DNA of 44,254 nt from a virus (UHGV-1376702); one strand, 5' to 3'; positions 275 to 26,273 are shown, numbered from the stretch's first letter. Numbers and translations are program-made. Notes: generated from the sequence alone by a model not told the origin.

Positions 275-1231
275 ATGGCATACAGCTGGCAAGAACAAAT
301 CAAGCCAGCTGGTACCCAGGATATCCAGTGCGATATTGAATATTTGGACAAGTCCTATATTCATGTATACCTAGACGGTGTGGAAACCACTGGGTACACC
401 TGGACCAGCTCTACTAATATCAGGCTTAATTCGGCCTTAGCGGCAAGCACTACTGTGCTACTAATCCGTAAGACAGAGCGAGAGTATCTGTACATTGAGT
501 TCGCCAGTGGTTCTCCGTTCATTGAGGTAAACGTAGACTCCCAAAACACGCAGTTCCTGCACCTTGCGCAGGAACTAGTGGAGGGCCGGGCTATACCCGG
601 ATTCTATGGCGCTATCAGCATGAACGGGTACCGGATAACCAACTTAGCCAACCCAATCAGTGCCCAAGATGCCGCCACTAAGGCTTATGTAGATGCCGCC
701 GATGCCTTACTAGGACAGCGCATTGACGCAGAGCATTCGGGGTGGGTATCCGCTGTACAGGCCGAAGCCGTTACACGGAAGGCAGCAGATGACGCGCTGA
801 GTGCCCGTACCTCCGCCTTGGAGAACACCTTTATAAGCGGTGTAGAGACGGTAAGCTACCCGTGGAGCACGGTCCTGGCCACTGATACGGACGAAGTAAC
901 TCCAGGCTTAGCCTTCACTAAGGCTGTAGTAGAGGTTAACGGGGTTGGGCAGATTCGTGGCTACAGTTTCGATATTGTAGATAATACCATACTGTTTGCA
1001 GAGACCTTACCTGCGGGCACTATTGTAGCCGCTCGGCTGGGGGTTGATGTAACTGCGGGGGACGGTTTTGCTACGCAAGCATCCCTAGATTACTTAGCCG
1101 ACTCTTTGGGAGATTTGGCGTATCTGGACAAGGCTGCAGCTGTATCCAACGCAACCGGCACCGGGGATGTAGTGGCTAAATTTAACGCACTGCTGGCAGC
1201 GCTACGCACCAGTGGGGTGCTGTCTACATGA
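275..1231 (+). CDS. tail fibre / tailspike adaptor protein (T7 gp17 N-terminal-domain-like)
   Basis: 318 aa; RBS GGAGA upstream; N-terminal region and the segment GRAIPGFYGAISMNGYRITNLANPISAQDAATKAYVD resemble the tail-attachment domain of T7-type fibres; lies between internal virion protein and terminase as in T7-like genomes. Confidence 0.6.
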   Translation: MAYSWQEQIKPAGTQDIQCDIEYLDKSYIHVYLDGVETTGYTWTSSTNIRLNSALAASTTVLLIRKTEREYLYIEFASGSPFIEVNVDSQNTQFLHLAQELVEGRAIPGFYGAISMNGYRITNLANPISAQDAATKAYVDAADALLGQRIDAEHSGWVSAVQAEAVTRKAADDALSARTSALENTFISGVETVSYPWSTVLATDTDEVTPGLAFTKAVVEVNGVGQIRGYSFDIVDNTILFAETLPAGTIVAARLGVDVTAGDGFATQASLDYLADSLGDLAYLDKAAAVSNATGTGDVVAKFNALLAALRTSGVLST

Positions 1232-1243
1232 TAGGAGAAGAGC

Positions 1244-1546
1244 ATGGCAGGGGCAGCTAAACGCAGTCGCCTCTCGGAGCTGCACCGTATGTTCACCGAG
1301 GCCTTGATTGAAGAAATCAAGCAGTCTAAGGAAGATGAGGTGCCGCTCCCCGCAGCAGATAAATCGGTCATTGCTAAGTTCTTGAAGGATAACGACATCA
1401 CCGCGGACGCAGATTCCGAGGAGATGCAGGACCTTCGTGACGAATTCGATGACGAGCTAGCGGCGCGCAGAGAGGCGCGTAAGCAAGAGATTCTAAATAA
1501 AGTTGGTGGTTCAGACTCTGAGGACTTACTAGAAGGAATTGTCTAA
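1244..1546 (+). CDS. terminase small subunit (putative)
   Basis: 100 aa acidic protein with RBS AGGAGAAG; stop overlaps the start of the large terminase gene (TAATGG); position and size typical of T7-like small terminase. Confidence 0.5.
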   Translation: MAGAAKRSRLSELHRMFTEALIEEIKQSKEDEVPLPAADKSVIAKFLKDNDITADADSEEMQDLRDEFDDELAARREARKQEILNKVGGSDSEDLLEGIV

Positions 1547-3787: not shown

Positions 3788-3970
3788 ATGGCAATTGCAA
3801 AAGCAACCCCAGCGCAACAGCAGGAGCTGCTGCGTCAGCTGAACATTCTCGGTAAGGACCTGTATGCTATCCTTACGCAGCCGCAGAACGTGGCCCAGAC
3901 TGGTGCTGCCTTCGATACCAAGATTGCTGCGCTTGAAGCCGCGGTGGCCGCAGTGAAGGCTGCTAGCTAA
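3788..3970 (+). CDS. hypothetical protein
   Basis: 60-aa ORF with RBS GGAGAG upstream; Ala/Gln-rich, helix-like; no transmembrane segment. Confidence 0.35.
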   Translation: MAIAKATPAQQQELLRQLNILGKDLYAILTQPQNVAQTGAAFDTKIAALEAAVAAVKAAS

Positions 3971-4374
3971 TGCGTAAACTGGTCGCTGGGTTGCTGCTCG
4001 CGGTTACTCTGACTGGTTGCTCGGCGACCTCTGCACTCACCGGATTAGTTGGTTCTAAGCCGGATGTATCTGCTCAGGTTGGTGCCGAGAACACCAAACA
4101 AACCGTTGGCTTGAATAACAAGGTGGACTCCAGCACCACCAACAAAACTGATGTACAGGATTCTAACGTAGGCACTTTGGACACGTCCAGTAAGAAGCAG
4201 GTGCAAACTATTAGCACCGGGACAATCCAGGCAGAACGCCTGCAGGTGGTTAACAATGATAGTTACAGTCTTATCCTCGCCGGATTAGCTGGGGCCAGTA
4301 TTCCTCTGGTCTTCCTAGTGGTCATTCTGGTGATTCGTAAGCTGTTCAGGAAGAAGGGGCAGCAGGATGATTAA
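3970..4374 (+). CDS. unimolecular spanin (u-spanin) candidate
   Basis: 134 aa; N-terminal lipoprotein signal with lipobox LTGC; Ser/Thr/Gln-rich middle; C-terminal TMD (LILAGLAGASIPLVFLVVILVI) then RKLFRKK. This is the architecture of T1 gp11-type u-spanins; no Rz/Rz1 pair is visible. Confidence 0.6.
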   Translation: MRKLVAGLLLAVTLTGCSATSALTGLVGSKPDVSAQVGAENTKQTVGLNNKVDSSTTNKTDVQDSNVGTLDTSSKKQVQTISTGTIQAERLQVVNNDSYSLILAGLAGASIPLVFLVVILVIRKLFRKKGQQDD

Positions 4375-4618
4375 GGTGGGAGACATGGTTGGAGCAGACC
4401 TCGCTACCCGGGCAGGTGCAGCAGTTACCGGCGCTACGGTATCAGGAGGTTGGTTGGCAGAGTTAATGAGCTGGAACTGGAGCACTATCAGCTTCATCAC
4501 TGCGACTGTGTGCGCAGTGCTAACCCTGGCGTGGAATGCGTATTACAAACGACGTACATTCAAGCTCCTAGAGGAGCAGGCACGTAAGGGGACTATTAAA
4601 TATGAGTTTAAGGACTAA
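4367..4618 (+). CDS. pinholin / holin candidate
   Basis: 83 aa (alternative start ATG 4385 with RBS AAGGTGGGAG); weakly hydrophobic Gly/Ala-rich segment (AGAAVTGATVSGGWLA) followed by a strongly hydrophobic TMD (WSTISFITATVCAVLTLAW) and a basic C-terminus; immediately 5' of a SAR endolysin. Confidence 0.5.
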   Translation: MIKVGDMVGADLATRAGAAVTGATVSGGWLAELMSWNWSTISFITATVCAVLTLAWNAYYKRRTFKLLEEQARKGTIKYEFKD

Positions 4619-5210
4619 GGTTATTGCGGCCCTCACGGGGGCCACTATGCTTGGCGGTGCCATTACCGGGGTGGTTCAGCACAACGAGGGGTTGAGCCTT
4701 ACCGCCTATAAGGATAGTGCCGGTGTCCCTACAATCTGCTACGGAGAGACAAAGGGCGTCAAGATGGGTCAGAGAGCCACGCTGAGCGATTGTCAGAAGC
4801 AACTGATAGAATCAGCAGGGGCACATGCAAAGGCTCTTGACGGGCTTCCTGTGCAGCTCTCTGACGTAGCTCTGGTTGGGTCTGTAGACTTCATTTATAA
4901 CGTAGGCGTAGCTGGCTTCAACGGCAGTGCTGTGAAGCGGCATCTCAAAAGCCTGAATTACGCAGCAGCTGGAAAGGCTGTACTGGACTGGCGCTATATT
5001 AGCAAGTACCAGCAGAAATCCCCGGGCATCGGTTGGGTGTACAAGGGCAGCAACCGCTGGACCTTCGACTGCTCTCAGTATATTAACGGGCAGCGCAATA
5101 AAGTGTGCTGGGGCCTATGGGAGCGCAGACAGTGGCAGAGCAAGGCCATTGGGAATCAGTATAAGAATGTAAATGCTGCGGTGGCAGCTCTTACTAAGAC
5201 CGGAGGATAA
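4602..5210 (+). CDS. SAR endolysin (T4-lysozyme-like muramidase, GH24-type)
   Basis: 202 aa; N-terminal signal-arrest-release-like weakly hydrophobic stretch (VIAALTGATMLGGAITGVV); catalytic motif E-x8-D-x5-T (NEGLSLTAYKDSAGVPT) typical of T4L/lambda R-type lysozymes. Confidence 0.8.
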   Translation: MSLRTKVIAALTGATMLGGAITGVVQHNEGLSLTAYKDSAGVPTICYGETKGVKMGQRATLSDCQKQLIESAGAHAKALDGLPVQLSDVALVGSVDFIYNVGVAGFNGSAVKRHLKSLNYAAAGKAVLDWRYISKYQQKSPGIGWVYKGSNRWTFDCSQYINGQRNKVCWGLWERRQWQSKAIGNQYKNVNAAVAALTKTGG

Positions 5211-7810: not shown

Positions 7811-7821
7811 GGGGGGGGGGG
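7811..7821. repeat. G11 homopolymer tract
   Basis: Eleven consecutive G in the non-coding region. Confidence 0.9.
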
Positions 7822-7928: not shown

Positions 7929-7972
7929 GCGCTTCCTGTGCGCTTCCTGTGCGCTTCCTGTGCGCTTCCTGT
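7929..7972. repeat. tandem direct repeat, 4 x 11 bp (GCGCTTCCTGT)
   Basis: Four perfect head-to-tail copies read directly from the sequence. Confidence 0.9.
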
Positions 7973-17796: not shown

Positions 17797-18242
17797 CAGG
17801 TTGTATTGACCACGGACAGAAGGGAAGCACTTGCCGAGGAAAGGGCGCTGGGTATGGCCGCTCCAGATTTGACGGGAAGACAACTGGCAGCCACCGCAAA
17901 GCATACTGTGTAGCTCACAACTTGAAGCTGAGCGATATCGCGGGACTTGTAGTCCGGCATTCGTGCGACAATCCTCGGTGCATAAATCCGGAGCACCTGC
18001 TACTAGGGACTTCTAGCGATAATATGCAGGACCGAAATAAAGGTGCGCGTAATTTGCTGGGCAGCCGCAACCCTGCTGCCAGACTTACCCCAGAAGACGT
18101 GCACAGCATACGAGAAGCATACGCTGGCGGTGAGACCCAGGTATCTATAGCGAGACGCTTCGGGACAAGTCAAGGATACATATCTAATATCATAAAGGGG
18201 AGGGTATGGAATGAGCAGAAGCATCCTGATAACGGATTATGA
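17793..18242 (+). CDS. HNH homing endonuclease
   Basis: Motifs CIDHG, HR, VRHSCDNPRCINPEHLLLGT...N; track start 17787 is TTG, ATG at 17793 is more likely. Confidence 0.8.
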   Translation: MTGCIDHGQKGSTCRGKGAGYGRSRFDGKTTGSHRKAYCVAHNLKLSDIAGLVVRHSCDNPRCINPEHLLLGTSSDNMQDRNKGARNLLGSRNPAARLTPEDVHSIREAYAGGETQVSIARRFGTSQGYISNIIKGRVWNEQKHPDNGL

Positions 18243-20610
18243 GACGCAAAACCACCCATATTACGGTAGTGTTGCTTCCCCGTACTGTCCGGATAATTAC
18301 ATCGTAGAATCAGCGTGGCGTATTGACCGCACGCACGATGACGGTACGGTAGAAGTAGGCCCCGTAGAGAGTGTACGGTATAACAGTCGCGCGCACTTTG
18401 AAGCGGCACCTGTATCAGAATGGCTCCCAATACCAGCTGACTGTTGGCTGATTGTGGCTCACAACGCCGCATATGAGATTAGCTGGTTCCTAACCTTTGC
18501 GCGCGCCGAGTTTGAGGCCTTCCTAAAGCGGGGAGGTCGCGTATTCTGTACGATGCATTCTGAGTACATCGCCTCGGACTTTCAGAGCATGTATCCGTCG
18601 CTGGACGAGACGGCTCCTAAGTACGGTGGTACGCACAAAGTAGACGGGGTTAAGCTTCTGTGGGAGCAGGGTGTGCTAACTTCCCAGATTGACCCGATGC
18701 TGCTGCATGACTACCTGGTTAACGGGGACATCCCGAACACGGCCCTGTGCTTCTACGGCCAGTGCGCTACGTTCGCCCAGCGCAATCAGATGCAGTACGT
18801 GTGGGAGCGTATGGATGCCTTGCTGGCTTGGGCGTACTGCGAATGGTTCGGCCTGTTCGTTAATATGCCAATTGCACGCAAGAACCAGGAGGAGCAGGAG
18901 CAGCGCATCCGTGAGATTAAGCAGGAACTGCAGCAGTACATCCCGAAGGACTTACCAGAGACGCTAGATTTCAACTTCGGGTCGGACTTCCATATGTCAG
19001 CACTGGTGTACGGCGGGCCTATCAAGTACCGCAAGAAGGTGCCATATGACCCGCCGCAGTACGTCAAGGCCGACTTCTATAAGTACGAGGACGGAGAGGG
19101 TGCGCACACCTATATACCTGTACACGACACGCACATGCAAGAACTTCAAACGGAAGGCGGATGGTGGCGTGTAGTGACATATCGTGCGGGTAAGAACAAG
19201 GGGCTACCCAAAGTATTCCGCCTAGACACCGAGGAGGAGAAGCTAAAGTGGGAAGATGACCTTTACTTCTGCCCGGGCCTAGTGAACATACAGGAGCTGC
19301 CGGAAGTTATCCGGGAGAAGTATGCAGAGCGTGGAGAGTTCCGACAGGCGCGCACCATGCAGGACGGTACGCCAGTATACAGCACCAGCACTGACGCAAT
19401 GGAGGCGCTAGCCCGCCAAGGGTTCGAGTTCTGTAAGTTGGTGAATGAGCTGGCGGCGCTGGAGAAGGACACTGGAACTTACTACTTGCGTGAAGTTCTG
19501 GACGCAGAGGGTAAAGTCAAAGAGCGGAAGGGTATGTTACAGTACGTAATCCCTGAGCGTCCTGATGGTTCTGGCATCATACACCACCGACTGAATACAT
19601 GCGCCACCGTAACCGGGCGCCTGAGTAGCTCTAACCCGAACCTGCAGAACCTACCCCGACCGGATGAAGACGGGGATGGGGTAGCTAAATCCAAGGTGAA
19701 GCAGGTATTCACCAGCCGATTCGGGGATAACGGACGCATCACTGAGGTTGACTACTCGGCGCTGGAAGTGGTTATGTCCTGTGTGCATACGGGGGACACC
19801 AAACTACTGGGGCTGCTGCAGGGCGGCACGGATATGCACTGTTACCGCCTAGCTTTCCGCGAGGAACTGCCGTATGAAGAAGTGTATGAGCGCTGCCACA
19901 ACAAGAAGCACGAGCTGCATCCGCTTTGGAAGGCAATGCGTACAGGTATTAAGGCTCCTAGCTTCGCAGCCCAGTATGGCGCTACGGCTAAGGGGATTGC
20001 GTTTGCTACTGGATGTACGGTGGAATTCGCACAGGCTTTCTTGGACAACGAGGCTGCGCTGTTCCCGCAAACAATTGGCTTCCGCGCTGTTATCAAGGAA
20101 GAAGTAGAGCGCACCGGGGCAGCCGGGCGCATGTACCGCGAGCAGGCTGACGATGGCAGCTACCGAGTCTACCGCATCGGGACGTGGACTAGCCCAGCAG
20201 GTGCCCGCTATAGCTTCCGCCAGAAGGAGCAGTGGAAAGAGGTTGTGCCTGGGCAGCGTAAGCAGAAGGTAATGGACTACAAGGAAACAGAGATGGCTAA
20301 CTACTGGTGCCAGGGGGAAGCATTCTTCCTGATGGCGGTAGCCGCCGGTATGGTTCTGCGTGCACTCCTGGCCCGTGACTGGTTCGACAATCAGGTGTGC
20401 CTGATTACGAACGTGCACGATGCGTTGTATCTGGACAGCGCCAACCCGGAGGTTGGACGTGAGGCGAGCCTGCTGGTTAAGCAGTGCATGGAGGATGCAC
20501 CTAAGCGTATTCACCAGCTCTGGCCTAACTACGGCATCATTGGTGAGGTCCCGTTCCCAGCAGAGGCTGAGATGGGTACGAGTATGTACAGTAAGGAGAA
20601 GGTAGAATGA
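18211..20610 (+). CDS. DNA polymerase, family A (T7 gp5-like) with 3'-5' exonuclease domain
   Basis: 799 aa; exo motif ILITDYETQN; pol motif A (EVDYSALEVV), motif B (R..IKAPSFAAQYG), motif C (VHDALY); TGRLSSSNPNLQNLP. Confidence 0.9.
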   Translation: MSRSILITDYETQNHPYYGSVASPYCPDNYIVESAWRIDRTHDDGTVEVGPVESVRYNSRAHFEAAPVSEWLPIPADCWLIVAHNAAYEISWFLTFARAEFEAFLKRGGRVFCTMHSEYIASDFQSMYPSLDETAPKYGGTHKVDGVKLLWEQGVLTSQIDPMLLHDYLVNGDIPNTALCFYGQCATFAQRNQMQYVWERMDALLAWAYCEWFGLFVNMPIARKNQEEQEQRIREIKQELQQYIPKDLPETLDFNFGSDFHMSALVYGGPIKYRKKVPYDPPQYVKADFYKYEDGEGAHTYIPVHDTHMQELQTEGGWWRVVTYRAGKNKGLPKVFRLDTEEEKLKWEDDLYFCPGLVNIQELPEVIREKYAERGEFRQARTMQDGTPVYSTSTDAMEALARQGFEFCKLVNELAALEKDTGTYYLREVLDAEGKVKERKGMLQYVIPERPDGSGIIHHRLNTCATVTGRLSSSNPNLQNLPRPDEDGDGVAKSKVKQVFTSRFGDNGRITEVDYSALEVVMSCVHTGDTKLLGLLQGGTDMHCYRLAFREELPYEEVYERCHNKKHELHPLWKAMRTGIKAPSFAAQYGATAKGIAFATGCTVEFAQAFLDNEAALFPQTIGFRAVIKEEVERTGAAGRMYREQADDGSYRVYRIGTWTSPAGARYSFRQKEQWKEVVPGQRKQKVMDYKETEMANYWCQGEAFFLMAVAAGMVLRALLARDWFDNQVCLITNVHDALYLDSANPEVGREASLLVKQCMEDAPKRIHQLWPNYGIIGEVPFPAEAEMGTSMYSKEKVE

Positions 20611-20828: not shown

Positions 20829-20931
20829 TGATAGGTGGACCCTTGGGTGGTGTAGGGGGTTAGGGTAGCATGGAAATACACTGGGGTCAACTAAATAATT
20901 AAATAAAATTATTTGTTGACTCTAGCTTGAT

Positions 20932-20946
20932 TCTGTGATTCACAGA
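20932..20946. promoter_or_regulatory. perfect 15-bp palindrome TCTGTGA-T-TCACAGA (operator-like)
   Basis: Read directly; lies in the 160-bp intergenic region upstream of HNH gene 20990, next to a TTGACT hexamer and an A+T-rich tract. Confidence 0.3.
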
Positions 20947-20989: not shown

Positions 20990-21424
20990 ATGTCGATGTG
21001 TATTGACCACGGGTATAACAAATGCCTTAACAAGAACGGATACCGCCGGGCATGGTATAAGCCGACCAGGCGATTGGAGCTGCTGCATCGGGTGGTGTAT
21101 GCTGAGCATAACGGGCTGGATATAAGGGCGCTGGCTGGCCTGTCTGTTAGACATACCTGCGATAACCCCAGGTGCATTAACCCTAAGCACTTAGTATTGG
21201 GAACGCATATGGATAATATGCGGGACCGTGCAGAGCGCGGAAGGAACCCAGATGTGCGTGGGGATAGGAACCCAAAAGCGCAGTTAACTTGGGATGCTGT
21301 GCAGGATATCAGGGATAACTATATCCCATACAAGAAAGGTATGCGGCAACACTTTGCTAATAAGTACGGTGTAGGTGTACATGTAATTAGTGACGTAATA
21401 AGTAACAGGAGCTGGAATGCCTAA
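20990..21424 (+). CDS. HNH homing endonuclease
   Basis: 144 aa; RBS AAGAGGA; motifs CIDHG, HR, VRHTCDNPRCINPKHLVLGT...N. Confidence 0.8.
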   Translation: MSMCIDHGYNKCLNKNGYRRAWYKPTRRLELLHRVVYAEHNGLDIRALAGLSVRHTCDNPRCINPKHLVLGTHMDNMRDRAERGRNPDVRGDRNPKAQLTWDAVQDIRDNYIPYKKGMRQHFANKYGVGVHVISDVISNRSWNA

Positions 21425-22397
21425 GTTAAACACAATAAAGCTATTCACCAAAGAGCAACACATAGATATCTTGAGCAAGCACAGCTCTAACGTGGATGCT
21501 GCTGCCGCCTATAATAAGCTGGCGGGACTGGACGAGCCAGTGGTGTATCGACAGATGGTGAAGTACTGGCGCAGCATATTCCTAGACCACGCTGGGAGCA
21601 AGGGTAAGGCAATATCACACATGAAGGAGGCACTAAAGCTCATACAGCCCAGTCCCACTGATGACATCGGCAAAACCTTCGTGCCGGAAGTGTGCCACCG
21701 TATTCTCGTAGTTGGGGATTTGCATGCCCCCTATACGCACGTAGATGCTATGGCCTTCTTAGAATCTGTGCGAGACGCCTACTGTCCGGACATGGTTGTA
21801 CAGGTAGGCGACGAGACGGACGGCCACGCTATATCATTCCACGAAAGTAACCCGAACCTGGATAGCGCCGGGGTGGAGCTGGAGAAAGCTAAGCTCGTAC
21901 TGGAGGAGCTACATGAACTGTTCCCGAACCTATTGGTTTGCGATTCCAATCACGGCAGTCTGGTTTACCGCAGGGCGAAAGCTCACGGGCTACCAGTGCA
22001 ATTCATCAAGAAGTACCGAGATATACTTTTCCCTGAACATGGTGCCCCGGCGTGGTCTTGGGCTGACGCGTGGGTACTCAATACCCCACTTGGCCCGGTT
22101 AGATTCCAGCATCAAGTGTCGGGTGACTTCATGCTCAACGCTAGCCACGAAAGAACCAGCCTTGTCCTTGGTCACGAACATGGTCGCTTTGAGGTGCAAT
22201 ATGCAGCTAGCTCAACAGCTTTGTACTTTGGTGCGTATGCTGGGTGTCTGATTGACCGTAAGAGCATGGCCTTTGCTTACGGCAGACTCACCCGCAAGAA
22301 ACCAATCCTGGGTGTGATGGTAATCACCGAGGGTTGCCCGCAGTTAATTCCGATGCTGCTTGACGACGATGGTCGTTGGGTTGGTCGTACTAAATAA
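21417..22397 (+). CDS. calcineurin-like metallophosphoesterase
   Basis: 326 aa; GDLH ... GDETD ... CDSNHG motifs in canonical order (GDxH, GDxxD, GNH). Confidence 0.6.
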   Translation: MPKLNTIKLFTKEQHIDILSKHSSNVDAAAAYNKLAGLDEPVVYRQMVKYWRSIFLDHAGSKGKAISHMKEALKLIQPSPTDDIGKTFVPEVCHRILVVGDLHAPYTHVDAMAFLESVRDAYCPDMVVQVGDETDGHAISFHESNPNLDSAGVELEKAKLVLEELHELFPNLLVCDSNHGSLVYRRAKAHGLPVQFIKKYRDILFPEHGAPAWSWADAWVLNTPLGPVRFQHQVSGDFMLNASHERTSLVLGHEHGRFEVQYAASSTALYFGAYAGCLIDRKSMAFAYGRLTRKKPILGVMVITEGCPQLIPMLLDDDGRWVGRTK

Positions 22398-22407
22398 CAC
22401 AGAGGTG

Positions 22408-22578
22408 ATGATGAAAATGGGAATCTGTTCTGTACTGGGCCTTATCTTTGTAACCTTGAAACTGACTGGCGTTATCGCCTGGTCCTGGTTGTGGGTGCTG
22501 CTCCCGTTCTGGGGGCCTATGGCACTCGGCGTAATCCTAGTGTTCTTGGCGGTGGCCCTCAAAGCTGCCTCCCGCTAA
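22408..22578 (+). CDS. small membrane protein (two predicted TMDs)
   Basis: Start refined to ATG 22408/22411 (RBS AGAGG); about 56 aa; hydrophobic segments ICSVLGLIFVTL and MALGVILVFLAVAL. Confidence 0.4.
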   Translation: MMKMGICSVLGLIFVTLKLTGVIAWSWLWVLLPFWGPMALGVILVFLAVALKAASR

Positions 22579-22629
22579 GCCCTGCATCTGCACGTAAATA
22601 TCATTCAAACTAAACGAGGAAGTAATTAT

Positions 22630-23418
22630 ATGACGATGAATGCACTGGACACCCTGAACTCCCTGGTAGCGGCTGCTATTGAAACGCAGGATGTTGATAT
22701 GACTGAAACCGCACAGGGCGGTGCGTATGAGGACGCGCTGCTGCCGAAGGGTGAATACTACGGCTACTTCACCGAGTACGTAGAAATCGGTAAGCGCCTG
22801 CCGACTAAGGGTGGCAAGCCGACCGGTAAGCCCGCAGTAGCTAACGTACGCATCGGCATTGTAGTGTTCGGTCCTAACGGCGAAGTGAAGCGTATCCGCC
22901 CGTTCCCGATGGCTATCAGTAACTTTGAGCGCGCAGGCTTCAAGAAGTTCTTCGACAAGCTCAACTACGACAATAGCATTAAGCATGCAGCACAGCGTCT
23001 GGGCCAGGCCTTCACCTTCCCGATTGATGAGCACACCAGCGCCGCGGGCAAGAAGTCCAACATCGTGGACCTGTCCGGTATCCGCCCGATTCCGAAATTC
23101 GACCCGAACACTGGCGAGCCTATCAAGATGCCTGCCATGGATGCCTCTGAGATTAAGCTGTTCCTGTGGAACAACCCAACCAAAGAGACCTGGGATAGCC
23201 TGCACATCGAAGGCACCTTCGACGATGGTAAGAGCAAGAACTGGATTCAGGAGGATATGTACAAGGCTGTAGACTTCCCTGGCAGTGCTCTGGATATTCT
23301 GCTGAACGCTGGCTCGGTTCCTAGTCCGGCAGCTATGCAGGCACCCGCAGCCCCGGCTGCACCAGTGGCCCCTGCAGCCCCTGTGGCGCCAGCAGCACCC
23401 GCCGCACCTCAAGCCTAA
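22630..23418 (+). CDS. hypothetical protein with Pro/Ala-repeat C-terminal tail
   Basis: 262 aa; RBS GAGGAAG; C-terminus APAAPAAPVAPAAPVAPAAPAAPQA. Confidence 0.5.
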   Translation: MTMNALDTLNSLVAAAIETQDVDMTETAQGGAYEDALLPKGEYYGYFTEYVEIGKRLPTKGGKPTGKPAVANVRIGIVVFGPNGEVKRIRPFPMAISNFERAGFKKFFDKLNYDNSIKHAAQRLGQAFTFPIDEHTSAAGKKSNIVDLSGIRPIPKFDPNTGEPIKMPAMDASEIKLFLWNNPTKETWDSLHIEGTFDDGKSKNWIQEDMYKAVDFPGSALDILLNAGSVPSPAAMQAPAAPAAPVAPAAPVAPAAPAAPQA

Positions 23419-23471
23419 TCAACCCTAACCTAAACTAATACGGCCCCTCCTAGGGGCCTTAGAGGAAGCCT

Positions 23472-23726
23472 ATGAGCATCATCAAGATTCTCATCAAACT
23501 CCTGAGCGCAGCCTACACAGCAGAAGCTAAACGCGCCGATGCCAAAGTGCAGTTTAACGAGCAGTTGTCAGTTAAATTCGCAGACGACGCAGTGCGTCTG
23601 GCCGCTCAATCCGAGGCGCGCGTAGAGGCATCCAAGCATAGCAAAGAGTTAGCCGAGGCGTGCGCTTGCCATGCTGATAACCTGCGCGCTAAGCGTGGTG
23701 AAGTAGCTAACTTCCTGGAGGTATAA
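23472..23726 (+). CDS. hypothetical protein (hydrophobic N-terminus)
   Basis: 84-aa ORF with RBS GAGGAAG. Confidence 0.4.
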   Translation: MSIIKILIKLLSAAYTAEAKRADAKVQFNEQLSVKFADDAVRLAAQSEARVEASKHSKELAEACACHADNLRAKRGEVANFLEV

Positions 23727-24005
23727 ATGCGCATAATCACATGGGCCAAAGAACAGTACGCTGTGTTTCTGCTTCTGCGTGCACAGCGTTTGCAGAAGCG
23801 AGCAAACGACTGGCACTGGGCAGCTAATTCTCACGCACACAGGGCAAGCCTTCTGGGTGCCGAGATTAGCGCACACCGCTATCACTTGACTCGCCAGTGC
23901 GCCAAGTCCCGACGCCGTGCATACGCCCTGGGTGCAGAGGCTACGGCCACTGAGACCAAAGCCCACAATTTCATTTCAAAACACAAATTGAAAGGATTTG
24001 ACTAA
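23727..24005 (+). CDS. hypothetical basic protein
   Basis: 92-aa ORF directly abutting the previous stop; Arg/His/Lys-rich. Confidence 0.4.
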   Translation: MRIITWAKEQYAVFLLLRAQRLQKRANDWHWAANSHAHRASLLGAEISAHRYHLTRQCAKSRRRAYALGAEATATETKAHNFISKHKLKGFD

Positions 24006-24379
24006 TGGACAAAGTACTAGACGCATACAAGAAACTGGTTCTGGCTGTAGGTTACGTGAACTGTAGCGCCGTTCAAGGTTTCGACAATGGTGACCAGCTC
24101 GGCGCTGTGTACGATGCTCTGGACAAGCTGGCGGCCCTGTACGGCATGGACCTGGAGTTGGCTGCTACCGCCTTCAAGGAGCACAATGACCTGGCGGCAC
24201 ATGCCGATAAGTTACGGGGTGATGACCTAGTGCTTATCCGCATTGTGGGTACCCTAAGCATCGGGCTGGCGGAGATTGGTTCCTGCATCTACGACGTAGA
24301 CCAGAGCCTGCGTACCACGGAAGTAATCGGGGACATGCTTGGCACCGTGTTGGTGCTATCTGAACTGGAGGGTATATAA
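24005..24379 (+). CDS. hypothetical protein
   Basis: 124-aa ORF; start overlaps previous stop. Confidence 0.45.
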   Translation: MDKVLDAYKKLVLAVGYVNCSAVQGFDNGDQLGAVYDALDKLAALYGMDLELAATAFKEHNDLAAHADKLRGDDLVLIRIVGTLSIGLAEIGSCIYDVDQSLRTTEVIGDMLGTVLVLSELEGI

Positions 24380-24540
24380 TGCGTAAATTTATATCCTACA
24401 TAATTTCAGTCCCAGCACTGGTACTACTTGCAATCAGCTTGATGCTAATGGCGCTGGCGCTCAGTGTAGCCGGAGGCTCTAAGGGCGTGGCTATGCTGGG
24501 CCGTGCAATCCATGCTTTTACTGACCACTTAAAGGTGTAG
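24379..24540 (+). CDS. small membrane protein (about 53 aa)
   Basis: Not in the ORF track (under 60 aa); ATG after GGAGGG; single hydrophobic helix ISVPALVLLAISLMLMALALSVA. Confidence 0.3.
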   Translation: MRKFISYIISVPALVLLAISLMLMALALSVAGGSKGVAMLGRAIHAFTDHLKV

Positions 24541-24543
24541 AGA

Positions 24544-24706
24544 ATGCGTAACTTCTTTGCAAAATCATTTTACTTCCTGTTAGTAGCCCCGCTAGTGCCT
24601 GTAGCTATCCTGTGCTGGGCATTTGAGAAGGTAGAAAACAGTCAGGCGCTGACCGCCTGGGAATCCTGGGCGCGTAAGTTGACCAAGAAGGTTACGGGGG
24701 TCTGAT
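24544..24706 (+). CDS. small membrane protein (about 53 aa)
   Basis: Not in the ORF track; hydrophobic segment FYFLLVAPLVPVAILCWAF; stop overlaps the exonuclease start. Confidence 0.3.
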
Positions 24707-25673
24707 GATTATCAACGGGGTTGACTTGTCCCAGCTCGGGGAGCAGTTAGCTCCGCAGAACTCTGGGAAGATTCTGCTGTACGACGCGGATTTCACAGTT
24801 TATAAATCTGCTGCTACAGTGAAACGTTTGGATACCGCGATACGCCGCTTCTATCAGCTGGTGCTTGAGGACATGTTCCTGGTCGGCTGCTCAGAAGCAG
24901 TGGCGTATCTGACGCCTACGGGGTGTGCTAAGTGCCTGCGCTGGCACCTGCCTACGGCTAAGCCGTACCAAGGGAACCGCAATAAGCGTCAGGAGCTGCC
25001 ACTCAAGGCACCGTTGAAGCGGCACCTGATTGAGAACCCGGACCAGTATTCTGAGCATGGCATACAAGTGGTAAGCAGTGACTACTTTGAGGCCGACGAC
25101 CTATTTGTAATGGATTCGTACAGCTTCGGGGGCCGGGGAATCCTGATGTCACAGGACAAGGATTCTTGGCTCAGCCCTATGGCTCGGTTCGATATCCCTA
25201 CCGGAACCGTGTGGCCTGCCTTGGATAACCCATTCGGCTGGATTAAGTGGGATGATACCCAGGCTATGCCGGTACGAGCGCATGGCACTAAGTTCTTCTG
25301 GTGGCAAATGCTAGCAGGAGATGACGCAGATAACGTCAAAGGCATCACATTGCTTGATGGAAAGCTCTGTGGGAAGCGAACGGCCTTTGATGCTATCAAC
25401 CCTATTACCTCAGAGCAGGACGCCGCAGAATTCGTTGTAGCGGCCTATGCTCGAAACAACCAAGACGTACTCGCAGAGGCAGAATGCCTGTGGCTGAGGC
25501 GCTCCCAATCAGATTCAGCGTACCTGTATCTGATGTCACTGTTGACTACTCCCAGTCTGCGTGACTGGGTGCATTCTCTGCACGAGTACCATAAACAGCA
25601 CATACAGTGGATACAGGAGCACCCAGACAATGGCGAAGATGTCTGCGAAGGAGATGAGCCTGCGGGCGATTGA
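24705..25673 (+). CDS. 5'-3' exonuclease (T7 gp6 / FEN-like)
   Basis: 322 aa; acidic clusters in gp6-like order (LLYDADF, EADDLFVMDSY, SQDKD, GDDADNVKGIT); located after DNA polymerase. Confidence 0.65.
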   Translation: MIINGVDLSQLGEQLAPQNSGKILLYDADFTVYKSAATVKRLDTAIRRFYQLVLEDMFLVGCSEAVAYLTPTGCAKCLRWHLPTAKPYQGNRNKRQELPLKAPLKRHLIENPDQYSEHGIQVVSSDYFEADDLFVMDSYSFGGRGILMSQDKDSWLSPMARFDIPTGTVWPALDNPFGWIKWDDTQAMPVRAHGTKFFWWQMLAGDDADNVKGITLLDGKLCGKRTAFDAINPITSEQDAAEFVVAAYARNNQDVLAEAECLWLRRSQSDSAYLYLMSLLTTPSLRDWVHSLHEYHKQHIQWIQEHPDNGEDVCEGDEPAGD

Positions 25674-25830
25674 GTTATACTACGAGGGGAAACACGATGA
25701 ACTTGAAACTATTCTGGATGCGCTGCGTGAACGAGCACCCAAAACACATCGAAGAACGGTTGAGCATTTGGATTCTCTCATTCACGACAATGCTATGCTG
25801 GATGTAGTAGGGGAGATTCAGGTATGGTAA
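25630..25830 (+). CDS. hypothetical small protein
   Basis: In-frame ATG about 25630 with RBS AGGAGC; overlaps the exonuclease 3' end out of frame; stop overlaps the next HNH start. Confidence 0.3.
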   Translation: MAKMSAKEMSLRAIELYYEGKHDELETILDALRERAPKTHRRTVEHLDSLIHDNAMLDVVGEIQVW

Positions 25831-26273
25831 TGAACACACCTTGTATAGACCACGGTTGCAAAGGCATGGGCCTAGGCTACGCCACTGCTTGGTTTAGGGT
25901 GAACGGGGTTCGGAAGAGCACCACCAGGCACCGGATTGTATTCTATGCGGCACACGGATACTTCCCGGAGGTCGTAGAGCATGTATGCAACAACCCGCGC
26001 TGTATAAACGTGGAACATCTACGTGCAGGTACACATAAAAGTAACGCAGAATACAAGCACGCATGTGGGCGCGGTAATATAGAGGCGGCCACTAGGAAGG
26101 GCACGGATAATGGACGCGCTAAACTGGACGACTCCTTAGTGCGGTATCTCCGACAGATGTACGTGCCTAACGACCGAGAGTGGGGTGCGTCCGCTATAGC
26201 TAGGAGGTTAAATATGGGCGTTTCTAGTACACACAGAATGCTAACGGGGGCAGCATGGCGGCACGTCGTATAA
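25824..26273 (+). CDS. HNH homing endonuclease
   Basis: 149 aa; motifs CIDHG, HR, VCNNPRCINVEHLRAGT; same paralogue family. Confidence 0.75.
   Translation: MVMNTPCIDHGCKGMGLGYATAWFRVNGVRKSTTRHRIVFYAAHGYFPEVVEHVCNNPRCINVEHLRAGTHKSNAEYKHACGRGNIEAATRKGTDNGRAKLDDSLVRYLRQMYVPNDREWGASAIARRLNMGVSSTHRMLTGAAWRHVV

Follow-up and report, generated by a model that had tools for sequence, protein, structure and literature searches.

The window, a stretch of 44,254 nucleotides, belongs to a Drulisvirus (KP34-like) Klebsiella phage and is 99.9% identical to RCIP0106. The + strand carries the identified genes, and three small open reading frames, designated here A, B and C, all lie on it (Table 1). A preliminary description of this DNA had placed three very small membrane-protein genes inside the DNA-metabolism module and far from the lysis cassette. 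Both points hold: A, B and C are positioned among the DNA-metabolism genes of the middle block, and the spanin, holin and endolysin genes (3970-5210), which adjoin the terminase and tailspike genes, are ~17 kb from them. The boundaries first given were exact for B and required small adjustments for the other two, with A starting at 22411 rather than 22408 and C ending at 24705, not 24706; absence of such genes from the original ORF track only reflects its 60-aa cut-off, as had been supposed.

Table 1. Coordinates of the three small genes, their flanking features and the lysis cassette in the window.
Feature	Coordinates	Strand	Characteristics
Promoter candidate, sigma-70-like	20913..20939	+	25/27 bases identical to promoter annotated in phage KpV48
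Metallophosphoesterase gene	21417..22397	+	phrog_221 (E 7e-107); Pfam Metallophos; immediately 5' of A
Gene A	22411..22578	+	55 aa, predicted two-helix membrane protein; SD-like GAGG at 22402-22405; phrog_1374
Gene B	24379..24540	+	53 aa, predicted single-pass; phrog_17815 (E 1.2e-32, positions 1-53 of 53)
Gene C	24544..24705	+	53 aa, predicted single-pass; phrog_7652 (E 1.5e-30, positions 1-53 of 53)
5'-3' exonuclease gene	24705..25673	+	phrog_107 (E 2e-70); ATG shares one base with C stop
Spanin	3970-4374		lysis cassette
Holin	4367-4618		lysis cassette; phrog_20
Endolysin	4602-5210		lysis cassette

The three genes share their strand with the middle DNA-metabolism genes, are tightly packed, and are separated by no convincing terminator, from which we infer that they are probably co-transcribed with those genes. 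Start/stop overlaps are the rule across the operon, e.g. at the junction of B with the upstream 124-aa gene, whose stop shares one base with the B ATG (TAATG), and at the end of C, where the TGA and the exonuclease ATG overlap (TGATG). The promoter candidate lies 5' of the block holding A, B and C and derives from an annotation made by the depositors of KpV48; a scan of promoters and terminators gave a signal at or below chance level, and no Rfam family matched between 22000 and 25000. Literature searches found no Drulisvirus phage transcriptomes covering these genes.

All three predicted products are hydrophobic, with Kyte-Doolittle peaks (19-residue window) of 2.2 for A, 2.7 for B and 2.3 for C, and their lengths are kept among relatives in dozens of genomes, with pairwise dN/dS values of 0.13-0.22, denoting purifying selection, estimated at dS 0.2-0.6. 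Each ORF is preceded by an SD-like motif, and in a census of + strand ORFs in the gaps between large genes these were the only small transmembrane ORFs with such a motif outside the lysis cassette. GenBank relatives annotate all three as hypothetical or putative membrane proteins, and the annotated Drulisvirus genes gp23, gp28 and gp30 of Pone and gp25 and gp30 of fHe-Kpn01 are the same genes at the same positions. The existence of three small membrane-protein genes, as originally proposed, is thereby confirmed at the level of sequence and conservation, and A, B and C can be regarded as genuinely protein-coding. That they are instead spurious ORFs, or non-coding spacers with another role, is barely credible, and the conservation pattern in our view already refutes it. 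In its favour, the ORFs are very short and Gp25 and Gp30 were unseen in virion mass spectrometry of fHe-Kpn01, although they are not expected there; against this stand the dN/dS values, conserved lengths and SD-like motifs, the architecture of C, which is kept at ~30% identity, the conservation of the A family across bacterial phyla, and the lack of any Rfam match in the region.

The genes represent three unrelated, already catalogued families, each labelled 'unknown function' in PHROG, and comparison of genomes shows that A is a pan-phage accessory gene, B a genus-restricted accessory gene and C a genus-wide core gene. Given that the families are unrelated and their distributions very different, they do not constitute a functional trio of similar proteins. 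Pfam and NCBIfam searches returned nothing above threshold for A, B or C, no named toxin family was matched, and none of the PADLOC defence-system models reached E <= 1 for any of the three.

Gene A encodes MKMGICSVLGLIFVTLKLTGVIAWSWLWVLLPFWGP, followed by a variable C-terminal hydrophobic helix and a K/R end, and its two hydrophobic regions are parted by a K17-L-T-G loop. The ATG at 22408, from which a 56-aa product had been described, is in frame, but relatives have Ile or Thr at that position, and the ORF begins MKMG where a different gene adjoins upstream; the conserved start is therefore 22411, in agreement with the 168 nt annotated in GenBank relatives (55 aa). A is present in 36 of 63 related loci and cleanly missing from the remainder (~40% lack it), and is thus dispensable within the genus. 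Where present it is well conserved, with a dN/dS of 0.22 overall and 0.11 over the first 35 codons, whose residues are nearly invariant, and residues 1-52 match phrog_1374 (E 9.4e-20). We interpret A as a stand-alone two-helix hairpin with both ends probably in the cytoplasm and the cluster of Trp residues probably at the inner membrane's outer face. An AF2 model shows one continuous straight helix (residues 3-54), so the hairpin is not confirmed by the model, and a PDB sequence search with a profile of the family matched no solved structure.

The family to which A belongs extends far beyond this genus. Its motif, LKLxGxIxWSWWWVxxP, forms part of a Tmemb_185A-like module, and eleven of eleven diverse relatives match phrog_1374 (best E 1.8e-24). 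The invariant positions F..LKL...WSW..V..P are common to phages of Mycobacterium, Gordonia, Bacillus, Vibrio, Rheinheimera and Rhodobacter, and the motif also occurs in large E. coli and Salmonella phages, such that the family spans lytic and temperate phages of Actinobacteria, Firmicutes and Proteobacteria together with prophages. More than 600 matching stretches are present in bacterial and archaeal genomes, 304 of them confirmed by tblastn, and all five chromosomal copies that were checked lie inside prophages. Some relatives are fused to an N-terminal HTH_3 DNA-binding domain, which places the N-terminus of the family in the cytoplasm, and the C-termini are basic, many of them strongly so.

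Two database models contain the Trp-rich LKL...WSWWWV..P unit in common with the A family: Pfam PF10269 (Tmemb_185A, Transmembrane Fragile-X-F protein) and NCBIfam TIGR04438 (small_Trp_rich). A itself scores 15.2 bits against PF10269 (E 0.018), below the gathering cut-off of 23.1, and all eleven family members examined match below threshold (best E 7.9e-5), whereas two HTH-fused bacterial relatives pass it at 26.8 and 24.4 bits; the relation to PF10269 is thus likely but remote. The two also differ in extent, as the PF10269 model has 252 positions and describes a multi-pass eukaryotic protein, whereas A is a single 55-aa unit. The match of A to TIGR04438 is weaker (12.3 bits, E 0.13, against a cut-off of 36), with weak matches for 7 of the 11 relatives (best E 0.0029). 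Literature searches found neither a function for Tmemb_185A or TIGR04438 nor papers on either in phages.

Gene B has a simpler build, comprising MRK, a single long hydrophobic segment of 28 residues (4-31) containing Pro12, GGSKG, and then a C-terminal amphipathic helix with a hydrophobic moment of ~0.5. It was found in 15 of 65 related loci, with a dN/dS of 0.20, and in 71 clusters among 5.8 billion proteins, on contigs that are nearly all <= ~45 kb (one is 77.7 kb). B is therefore an accessory, dispensable gene restricted to Drulisvirus-type genomes. B and C had been called tandem, which is accurate as to their adjacent positions but not as to descent. Tandem duplication (paralogy) was considered and rejected, homology being undetectable with an hhalign probability of 1% and only 4 columns aligned.

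Gene C is the most constant of the three in its occurrence, being present in all 65 related loci (with a GTG start in two), and it is a core gene of Drulisvirus-like phages. Its hydrophobic region (residues 8-27) is a Pro-kinked TMD with invariant L13, P16 and P19, followed by a Trp-rich amphipathic tail helix (hydrophobic moment ~0.5) in which W39 and A43 are invariant on one face and W42 is nearly so; the AF2 model (pLDDT 83) has helices at residues 2-14, 17-31 and 34-51, with a kink between the first two. Two alleles, C1 and C2, are ~31% identical and linked by recombinant intermediates, and the window carries C1. The neighbouring exonuclease is ~95% identical across C1 and C2 genomes, and dN/dS is 0.18 for C1 and 0.13 for C2; these are two ancient allele classes that recombine freely. 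Co-variation was used to look for a phage partner of C, and the idea was rejected: of 25 other genes between 20.4 and 42 kb, including the exonuclease and internal virion (ejectosome) proteins, none co-varied with the allele class, the early region, lysis genes and tailspike lying outside the comparison. The positive-inside rule gave no consistent topological bias for B or C, with C1-like and C2-like tails pointing in opposite directions; the C2 tail has 8 Lys/Arg, and several family members have an acidic tail that is predicted to be periplasmic. A profile search for C in 5.8 billion proteins matched only Drulisvirus-type contigs, and when 1.84 billion representatives were searched exhaustively by HMM, a further four divergent full-length members came to light; three could be located, all directly upstream of the exonuclease.

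The location of C raises the question of whether it, and perhaps A, acts as a tether that anchors the exonuclease, the replisome, or phage or host DNA to the inner membrane. C belongs to the core genes and is coupled directly to the exonuclease start codon, and this junction is kept even in relatives whose exonuclease is just 59-66% identical; the Lys/Arg-rich C2 tail and the non-toxicity described below also agree with a tether. Members of the A family are found near replication genes, e.g. DnaB in Yecey3, a DnaB-like helicase and primase near the Nedarya copy, polymerase and exonuclease in Barba, and a gpA-like nickase in a Yersinia prophage, with another beside Mu-like transposase genes in Rikenella, and strongly basic C-termini are common among them. 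The coupling of C to the exonuclease is not specific, however, given that start/stop overlaps are common throughout the operon, and in 7 of the 65 loci C is directly 5' of an inserted HNH gene, which parts it from the exonuclease. Among the genes compared, neither the exonuclease nor any other replication gene co-varies with the C allele class, the soluble tail of C is ~25 residues long with no DNA-binding domain, and the acidic, predicted periplasmic tails of several members are ill-suited to this role. Nor is a small gene annotated directly 5' of the homologous exonuclease in other Autographiviridae subfamilies (Phimunavirus, Phikmvvirus, Friunavirus and Maculvirus), and A is dispensable. 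On balance we consider a tether fairly unlikely.

It is highly improbable that B, C or both are exported, with N-termini serving as cleaved signal peptides that free periplasmic amphipathic peptides of ~22-26 residues (disruptin-like or signalling). The idea draws on the name 'putative secreted protein' given to the B homologue by the annotators of phage Pone, on the MRK and hydrophobic stretch of B ending SVA|GG and the corresponding CWA|FEK in C1, and on the amphipathic, net positive tails of both. Hydrophobic cores of 20-28 residues nonetheless exceed the length typical of Sec signal peptides, C2, with LCYLG|DK, does not keep the putative cleavage motif, the TMD residues of C are its most conserved part, which is unexpected for a discarded leader, and the phage already has a spanin.

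The preliminary description had listed superinfection exclusion, inhibition of host division or of the membrane, and holin modulation as candidate roles. Host take-over toxins inhibiting cell division, cell-wall synthesis or membrane energetics would be compatible with the position of these genes among the middle genes, and in size and N-terminal TMD the products resemble phiX174 E, SPO1 gp56 and Hok-type peptides. Pro21 of phiX174 E is essential, and the conserved prolines in the C TMD recall it. The sole relevant experiment found in the literature, a toxicity screen of fHe-Kpn01 genes in E. coli, covered the homologues of A (Gp25) and C (Gp30) (PMC7291057). For Gp30 the relative count of transformants was 1.03 +/- 0.21, making it non-toxic, and Gp25 gave a variable count of 0.49 +/- 0.31 (0.18 and 0.80) and was not called toxic; neither was selected, whereas three other genes were confirmed as toxic (PMC7291057). 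These data derive from a single crude screen performed in E. coli rather than Klebsiella, and they argue against potent division or membrane poisons; together with the absence of homology to named toxin families in Pfam and NCBIfam they make this reading very unlikely. Of the earlier proposal, genuine membrane genes in the middle block thus stand, and potent poisons are disfavoured.

A role in the timing of lysis, with A holin- or antiholin-like and B and C modulating the holin or endolysin from afar as T4 rI does, is decidedly unlikely. The predicted layout of A resembles that of a class II holin, with two TMDs, ends inside, a short loop and a charged C-terminus; this comparison draws on its two hydrophobic regions and K/R end and on the N-in orientation supported by the HTH fusions of relatives, and has to be read beside the single straight helix of the AF2 model. 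Weak Pfam Phage_holin_3_6 matches occur in 4 of 11 family members (best E 0.005), and the variable Gp25 transformant counts possibly reflect a reduction. The holin matches are, however, far below threshold and typical of compositional similarity, a complete spanin/holin/endolysin cassette is present elsewhere in the genome, and A, B and C sit among DNA-metabolism genes. The relatives that lack A presumably all complete lysis, and neither Gp25 nor Gp30 was called toxic.

A more ambitious proposal, which we regard as unlikely, is that A is a near-universal phage hairpin module (~55-80 aa) performing one conserved job early in infection on a universally conserved target, and that the C alleles are under balancing selection from a polymorphic host membrane target. 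The hosts would then be Gram-negative, Gram-positive, actinobacterial and possibly archaeal, A would be remote kin of the eukaryotic TMEM185A repeat unit, and its job might be that of a viroporin-like channel or of an anchor or sensor at the cytoplasmic membrane.

Our preferred reading, held tentatively and at somewhat less than even chances, is that A, B and C reside in the inner membrane and modulate membrane machinery belonging to the host or to an incoming phage. They would insert into the host inner membrane in the middle phase of infection and there act as 'micro-modulators', making helix-helix contacts within the bilayer or at its surface and so altering a membrane-embedded machine, either the host's own or that of a second phage on its way in, and would be neither DNA-metabolism enzymes nor parts of the lysis machinery. 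The outcome might be that superinfecting DNA is excluded, that a membrane-bound defence or stress sensor is neutralised, or that envelope physiology is tuned; exclusion or host-membrane modulation is plausible. The clean presence or absence of A within the genus is as expected of a conditionally useful host-interaction gene, and the invariant positions of C in the TMD and on one face of the tail fit sequence-specific contacts better than a generic anchor. Similarly, the absence of co-variation of the C allele points less to co-evolution with a partner in the phage than to a partner on the host side or to contact residues that are conserved, and a C homologue that was non-toxic, with an A homologue not called toxic, suits modulators better than poisons. 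Against a modulator role, C is a core gene present throughout the group, as factors for exclusion or anti-defence are not usually. The empty searches of PADLOC models and of solved structures, the single AF2 helix of A, the lack of a consistent charge bias in B and C, and the crudeness of the E. coli screen also count against it.

Small membrane proteins are among the least understood of phage genes, and Drulisvirus phages are widely used in Klebsiella phage-therapy work. The results presented here mainly confirm known hypothetical genes and sharpen the targets for testing. C is present in every genome examined yet has two deeply diverged alleles, and is a natural target for knock-out and allele-swap experiments. 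Through A, this phage is linked to an uncharacterised family that is very large and apparently pan-phage, and if a function were established in a single tractable phage, members of phrog_1374 could be annotated in many phages and prophages. Should any of A, B or C exclude phages or block a membrane-bound defence, this would be relevant to the design of phage cocktails.

Among characterised systems, T4 Imm offers a precedent for the preferred reading; it is a small protein with two TMDs that is produced early in the lytic cycle. Superinfection exclusion by this phage-encoded protein works through its binding to the tape-measure channel protein, a component of the channel that delivers the genome of the incoming phage, so that secondary infection is blocked (bioRxiv 10.64898/2026.03.06.709160). 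The likeness to A is one of two TMDs and possible mode of action, not of family relationship; Imm targets one channel protein, whereas the A family spans phages with unrelated ejection machines, and conservation of the motif across such machines and hosts makes a phage-specific target, as for Imm, unlikely for A. In its predicted layout A is similar to the class II holins and pinholins (S21 type), but it lies outside a lysis cassette that has its own holin. AcrZ, MgrB, SafA and SidA are single-pass peptides of ~30-65 aa with a short amphipathic tail, are non-toxic, and regulators of the AcrZ type exert their effect inside the bilayer, where they bind a larger membrane protein. B and C have a similar architecture and differ in being phage-encoded, with no homology to these peptides. 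The phi29 protein p16.7 is a membrane anchor of replicating phage DNA, 130 aa in length with a coiled coil and a DNA-binding domain. Like B and C it has an N-terminal TMD and is encoded among replication genes, but in B and C no more than ~22-26 residues extend beyond the membrane, and these form a single amphipathic helix rather than a DNA-binding or dimerisation domain.

Three unrelated small hydrophobic proteins are encoded by real genes (A, B and C) among the middle genes of the window, and they fall into three evolutionary classes: A, an accessory module, is pan-phage; B, also accessory, is restricted to the genus; and C belongs to the core of the whole genus and shows an ancient dimorphism (allele classes C1, carried by the window, and C2). 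The 4.3-kb stretch around them is 99.9% identical to Klebsiella phage RCIP0106 and 87-92% identical to many KP34-like phages (genus Drulisvirus; Autographiviridae, Slopekvirinae), and the + strand carries the identified genes of the window.

Features of the window, and of other sequences where an L-number (a locus outside the window) is given
Feature	Coordinates	Strand	Position or remark
Lysis cassette	3970-5210		Rz-like spanin, holin, endolysin
Spanin	3970-4374		phrog_1804, 134 aa
11-base G run	7811-7821		Non-coding stretch after 7723
Four tandem copies of GCGCTTCCTGT	7929-7972		Same non-coding stretch
DNA polymerase	18211-20610	+	First in listed order of region
Sigma-70-like promoter candidate	20913-20939		Homologue (25/27 bases) of promoter annotated in phage KpV48
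73-aa gene, then HNH endonuclease		+	3' of DNA polymerase, 5' of metallophosphoesterase
Two HNH genes of DNA-metabolism block	20990-21424, 25824-26273		
Metallophosphoesterase	21417-22397	+	Directly before A
A	22411-22578	+	
262-aa protein		+	3' of A; phrog_862
Hairpin GGCCCCT-CCT-AGGGGCC	23442-23458		Between 262-aa and 84-aa genes
84-aa, 92-aa, 124-aa proteins		+	Between 262-aa gene and B
B, then C	24379-24540, 24544-24705	+	Between 124-aa gene and exonuclease
Gap between B and C	24541-24543		3 bases; counterpart of 65-aa ORF slot
5'-3' exonuclease	24705-25673	+	After C
HNH, endonuclease VII, DUF3310 protein, then RNA polymerase		+	3' of exonuclease
65-aa soluble ORF, phage Pone	L001 4475-4672		
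HNH inserts	L043 4233-4739; L049 4033-4539; L035 4397-4831; L037, L045, L064, L065		Between C and exonuclease
Hydrophobic-segment ORF, Pseudomonas phage PA28	L074 ~1090-1268		Between 124-aa gene and exonuclease
77-aa ORF, PA28	L074 ~1265-1498		Same slot; hydrophobic N-terminus
HTH_3 (XRE-type)-hairpin fusions, Clostridia MAG contigs	L184 2927-3499; L204 3662-4204; L205, L220, L224		~180-190 aa
A-family gene and neighbourhood, Rhodobacter phage RcRios	L082 1760-2656		A-family gene directly after phosphatase gene

All three ORFs of the preliminary description are found in the sequence, B exactly where it had been placed and C ending one base earlier than the 24706 reported. The ATG proposed for A at 22408 is in frame, but the conserved start is 22411, giving 55 aa and not 56, because the Met at 22408 is not kept (relatives have Ile or Thr there) and the ORF opens at MKMG where the gene 5' of A differs; the GenBank annotation agrees. 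An SD-like motif precedes each gene. Kyte-Doolittle hydropathy maxima (19-residue window) are 2.2 for A, whose two hydrophobic regions are parted by K17-L-T-G, 2.7 for B (residues 4-31) and 2.3 for C (residues 8-27), with amphipathic helices at the ends of B and C (hydrophobic moment ~0.5). Conservation in relatives, suggested earlier as a check, is borne out: among 62 related loci from IMG/VR and three from GenBank, in which ORFs of the two gaps were classified, all three lengths are kept, and pairwise Nei-Gojobori dN/dS at dS 0.2-0.6 is 0.22 for A (0.11 across the first 35 codons), 0.20 for B, 0.18 for C1 and 0.13 for C2. An Rfam search of the A-C region gave no family match. On this sequence evidence we regard chance ORFs as excluded, and a spurious origin retains scarcely any probability. 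The existence of the genes is not new, as they are already annotated and grouped in PHROGs; what is new is their split into three evolutionary groups, how widely the A family is spread and which topology it likely has, and an allelic dimorphism in C that is unlinked. Overall the finding is solid but modest.

Several other elements accompany these genes. Both window HNH genes are patchily present among relatives at 26-100% identity, a pattern typical of what mobile homing endonucleases would leave. The G+C-rich hairpin (53 surrounding nt fold at -16.2 kcal/mol, with no T-run 3' of it) occurs exactly in only 9/65 related loci; it may be a weak terminator, or else serve in mRNA processing or stability. 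The G run and tandem repeats probably mark a genome end or the early-promoter region of a permuted assembly.

A survey of + strand ORFs lying between large genes turns up, outside the lysis cassette, no small TM ORFs preceded by an SD motif other than A, B and C. They do lie far from that cassette, as had been noted. Lysis-timing or holin-like roles for them are improbable. The spanin combines, in one chain, a lipoprotein signal at its N-terminus (LLLAVTLTGC) with a transmembrane helix at its C-terminus, the predicted layout of a unimolecular spanin and not of an Rz/Rz1 pair. A role as host-directed toxins is decidedly improbable, being weakened by an E. coli screen of the Drulisvirus phage fHe-Kpn01, in which neither the A homologue (gp25) nor the C homologue (gp30, C1 type) was called toxic: relative transformant counts were 0.49 +/- 0.31 for Gp25 and 1.03 +/- 0.21 for Gp30, outside both the five toxic candidates and the three confirmed toxic proteins, and neither protein was detected by virion mass spectrometry (PMC7291057). 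This was the only relevant study found in a literature search, which returned nothing on TIGR04438, on Tmemb_185A in phages, or on transcription of A, B or C.

Gene A is present in 36/63 related loci, and in many loci lacking it the phosphoesterase-to-262-aa-gene gap is just 55-58 bases. Within Drulisvirus its first 35 residues are near-invariant and its second helix is freely variable yet always hydrophobic. Searching 50,697 phage records with tblastn reveals A-like ORFs in 508, including phages of Mycobacterium, Gordonia, Rhodococcus, Bacillus, Vibrio, Rheinheimera and Rhodobacter as well as large E. coli, Salmonella and Klebsiella myoviruses. The core F..LKL(T/C)GxIxWSW(W/L)(W/L)V..P, which leads into a variable hydrophobic helix and then a basic end, is common to eleven diverse members; all eleven match phrog_1374, all match Pfam Tmemb_185A below threshold, and seven weakly match TIGR04438. 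A scan of one genome per prokaryotic species gives >600 stretches matching the motif, 304 of them confirmed, in Firmicutes, Actinobacteria, Bacteroidota, Proteobacteria, Planctomycetes, Saccharimonadia and a few archaeal MAGs. The chromosomal examples examined (5/5) lie amid phage genes (P2-type nickase, head proteins, Mu-type transposase, exonuclease, neck protein). A single conserved function early in infection, shared by the A family throughout the phages, is unlikely. A-family ORFs with the full WSWWWV motif stand on MAG contigs binned as archaeal (L190, Heimdallarchaeota; L200, Nanoarchaeota; L228, Bathyarchaeia), which could derive from archaeal viruses or be mis-binned phage contigs, and the phosphatase neighbour that RcRios shares with the window may be coincidence.

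In several Clostridia MAGs the A module is fused behind an N-terminal HTH_3 domain and passes the Tmemb_185A cut-off (26.8 and 24.4 bits vs 23.1); these fusions look like membrane-anchored transcription regulators. From the basic C-termini, and because a DNA-binding domain has to be in the cytoplasm, we infer that A is an N-in/C-in hairpin whose loop (KLTGxI) and Trp cluster lie on the outer side of the inner membrane. AF2 models A as one straight helix (pLDDT 89), which does not confirm the hairpin.

Gene B occurs in 15/65 related loci and is confined to Drulisvirus-type contigs (71 clusters); its members split on orientation by the positive-inside rule. No paralogy of B and C is detectable (hhalign probability 1%). 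Between them, 28/65 loci carry a 65-aa soluble ORF (MSVRVKVSAPRHSF...RWAAKPTRKQVKLAAKSVARLEI in Pone) that the window lacks; its dN/dS of 0.19 shows it to be a real accessory gene.

Gene C is present in 65/65 related loci, with a GTG start in two. C1 (MRNFFAK...WESWARKLTKKVTGV) and C2 (MLYVSRAIY...KWAERWVNWADKKARDITGR) are ~31% identical and align without internal gaps; L13, P16, P19, W39 and A43 are invariant, and recombinant intermediates occur. A profile search of 5.8 billion proteins finds 68 clusters, with the longest contig <=~45 kb in all but one, and an exhaustive HMM search of 1.84 billion representatives adds four divergent full-length members. The AF2 model (pLDDT 83) has helix 2-14, a kink at P16, helix 17-31 and amphipathic helix 34-51. 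The positive-inside rule is inconsistent, C1-like tails favouring N-in and C2-like tails (8 Lys/Arg) C-in. Cleavage of B or C to exported peptides is very improbable.

Three of the divergent members were located, each directly upstream of and overlapping an exonuclease gene 59-88% identical to that of the window. In Phimunavirus, Phikmvvirus, Friunavirus and Maculvirus the exonuclease is homologous, but no small gene is annotated directly upstream; PA28, of the sister genus Novosibovirus, has a non-homologous small hydrophobic ORF there (MFIINLVFIISTLYVL...). Carrying a small membrane protein in the pre-exonuclease slot may be a positional trait of this subfamily. Even divergent relatives keep the one-base stop/start overlap, as a membrane tether for replication or nuclease complexes might have it, a minor possibility; start/stop overlaps are the norm throughout the window's operon, and a homing-type HNH gene separates C and exonuclease in 7/65 genomes. 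At their start the inserted ORFs of L043 and L049 repeat the opening 12 exonuclease codons (MIINGVDLSQLG) before diverging, which looks like target-site duplication from insertion. In a second set of 65 loci spanning ~20.4-42 kb, C could be typed in 52 (15 C1, 37 C2). Once multiple testing was allowed for, class was associated with the identity of none of 25 other genes in that range. Among these are RNA polymerase, the 124-aa neighbour, three internal virion proteins, structural proteins and the exonuclease (95% vs 95% identity by class). Co-evolution with a phage partner encoded in ~20.4-42 kb therefore does not account for how far C has diverged.

We tentatively favor a model in which A, B and C would insert into the inner membrane and there act as small modulators of membrane-embedded machinery of the host or of an incoming phage, possibly through exclusion, anti-defence or envelope tuning. 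AcrZ and MgrB are small regulators of this kind in bacteria. T4 Imm binds the tape-measure channel protein (bioRxiv 10.64898/2026.03.06.709160). All three serve as working analogies for A-C and imply no kinship.
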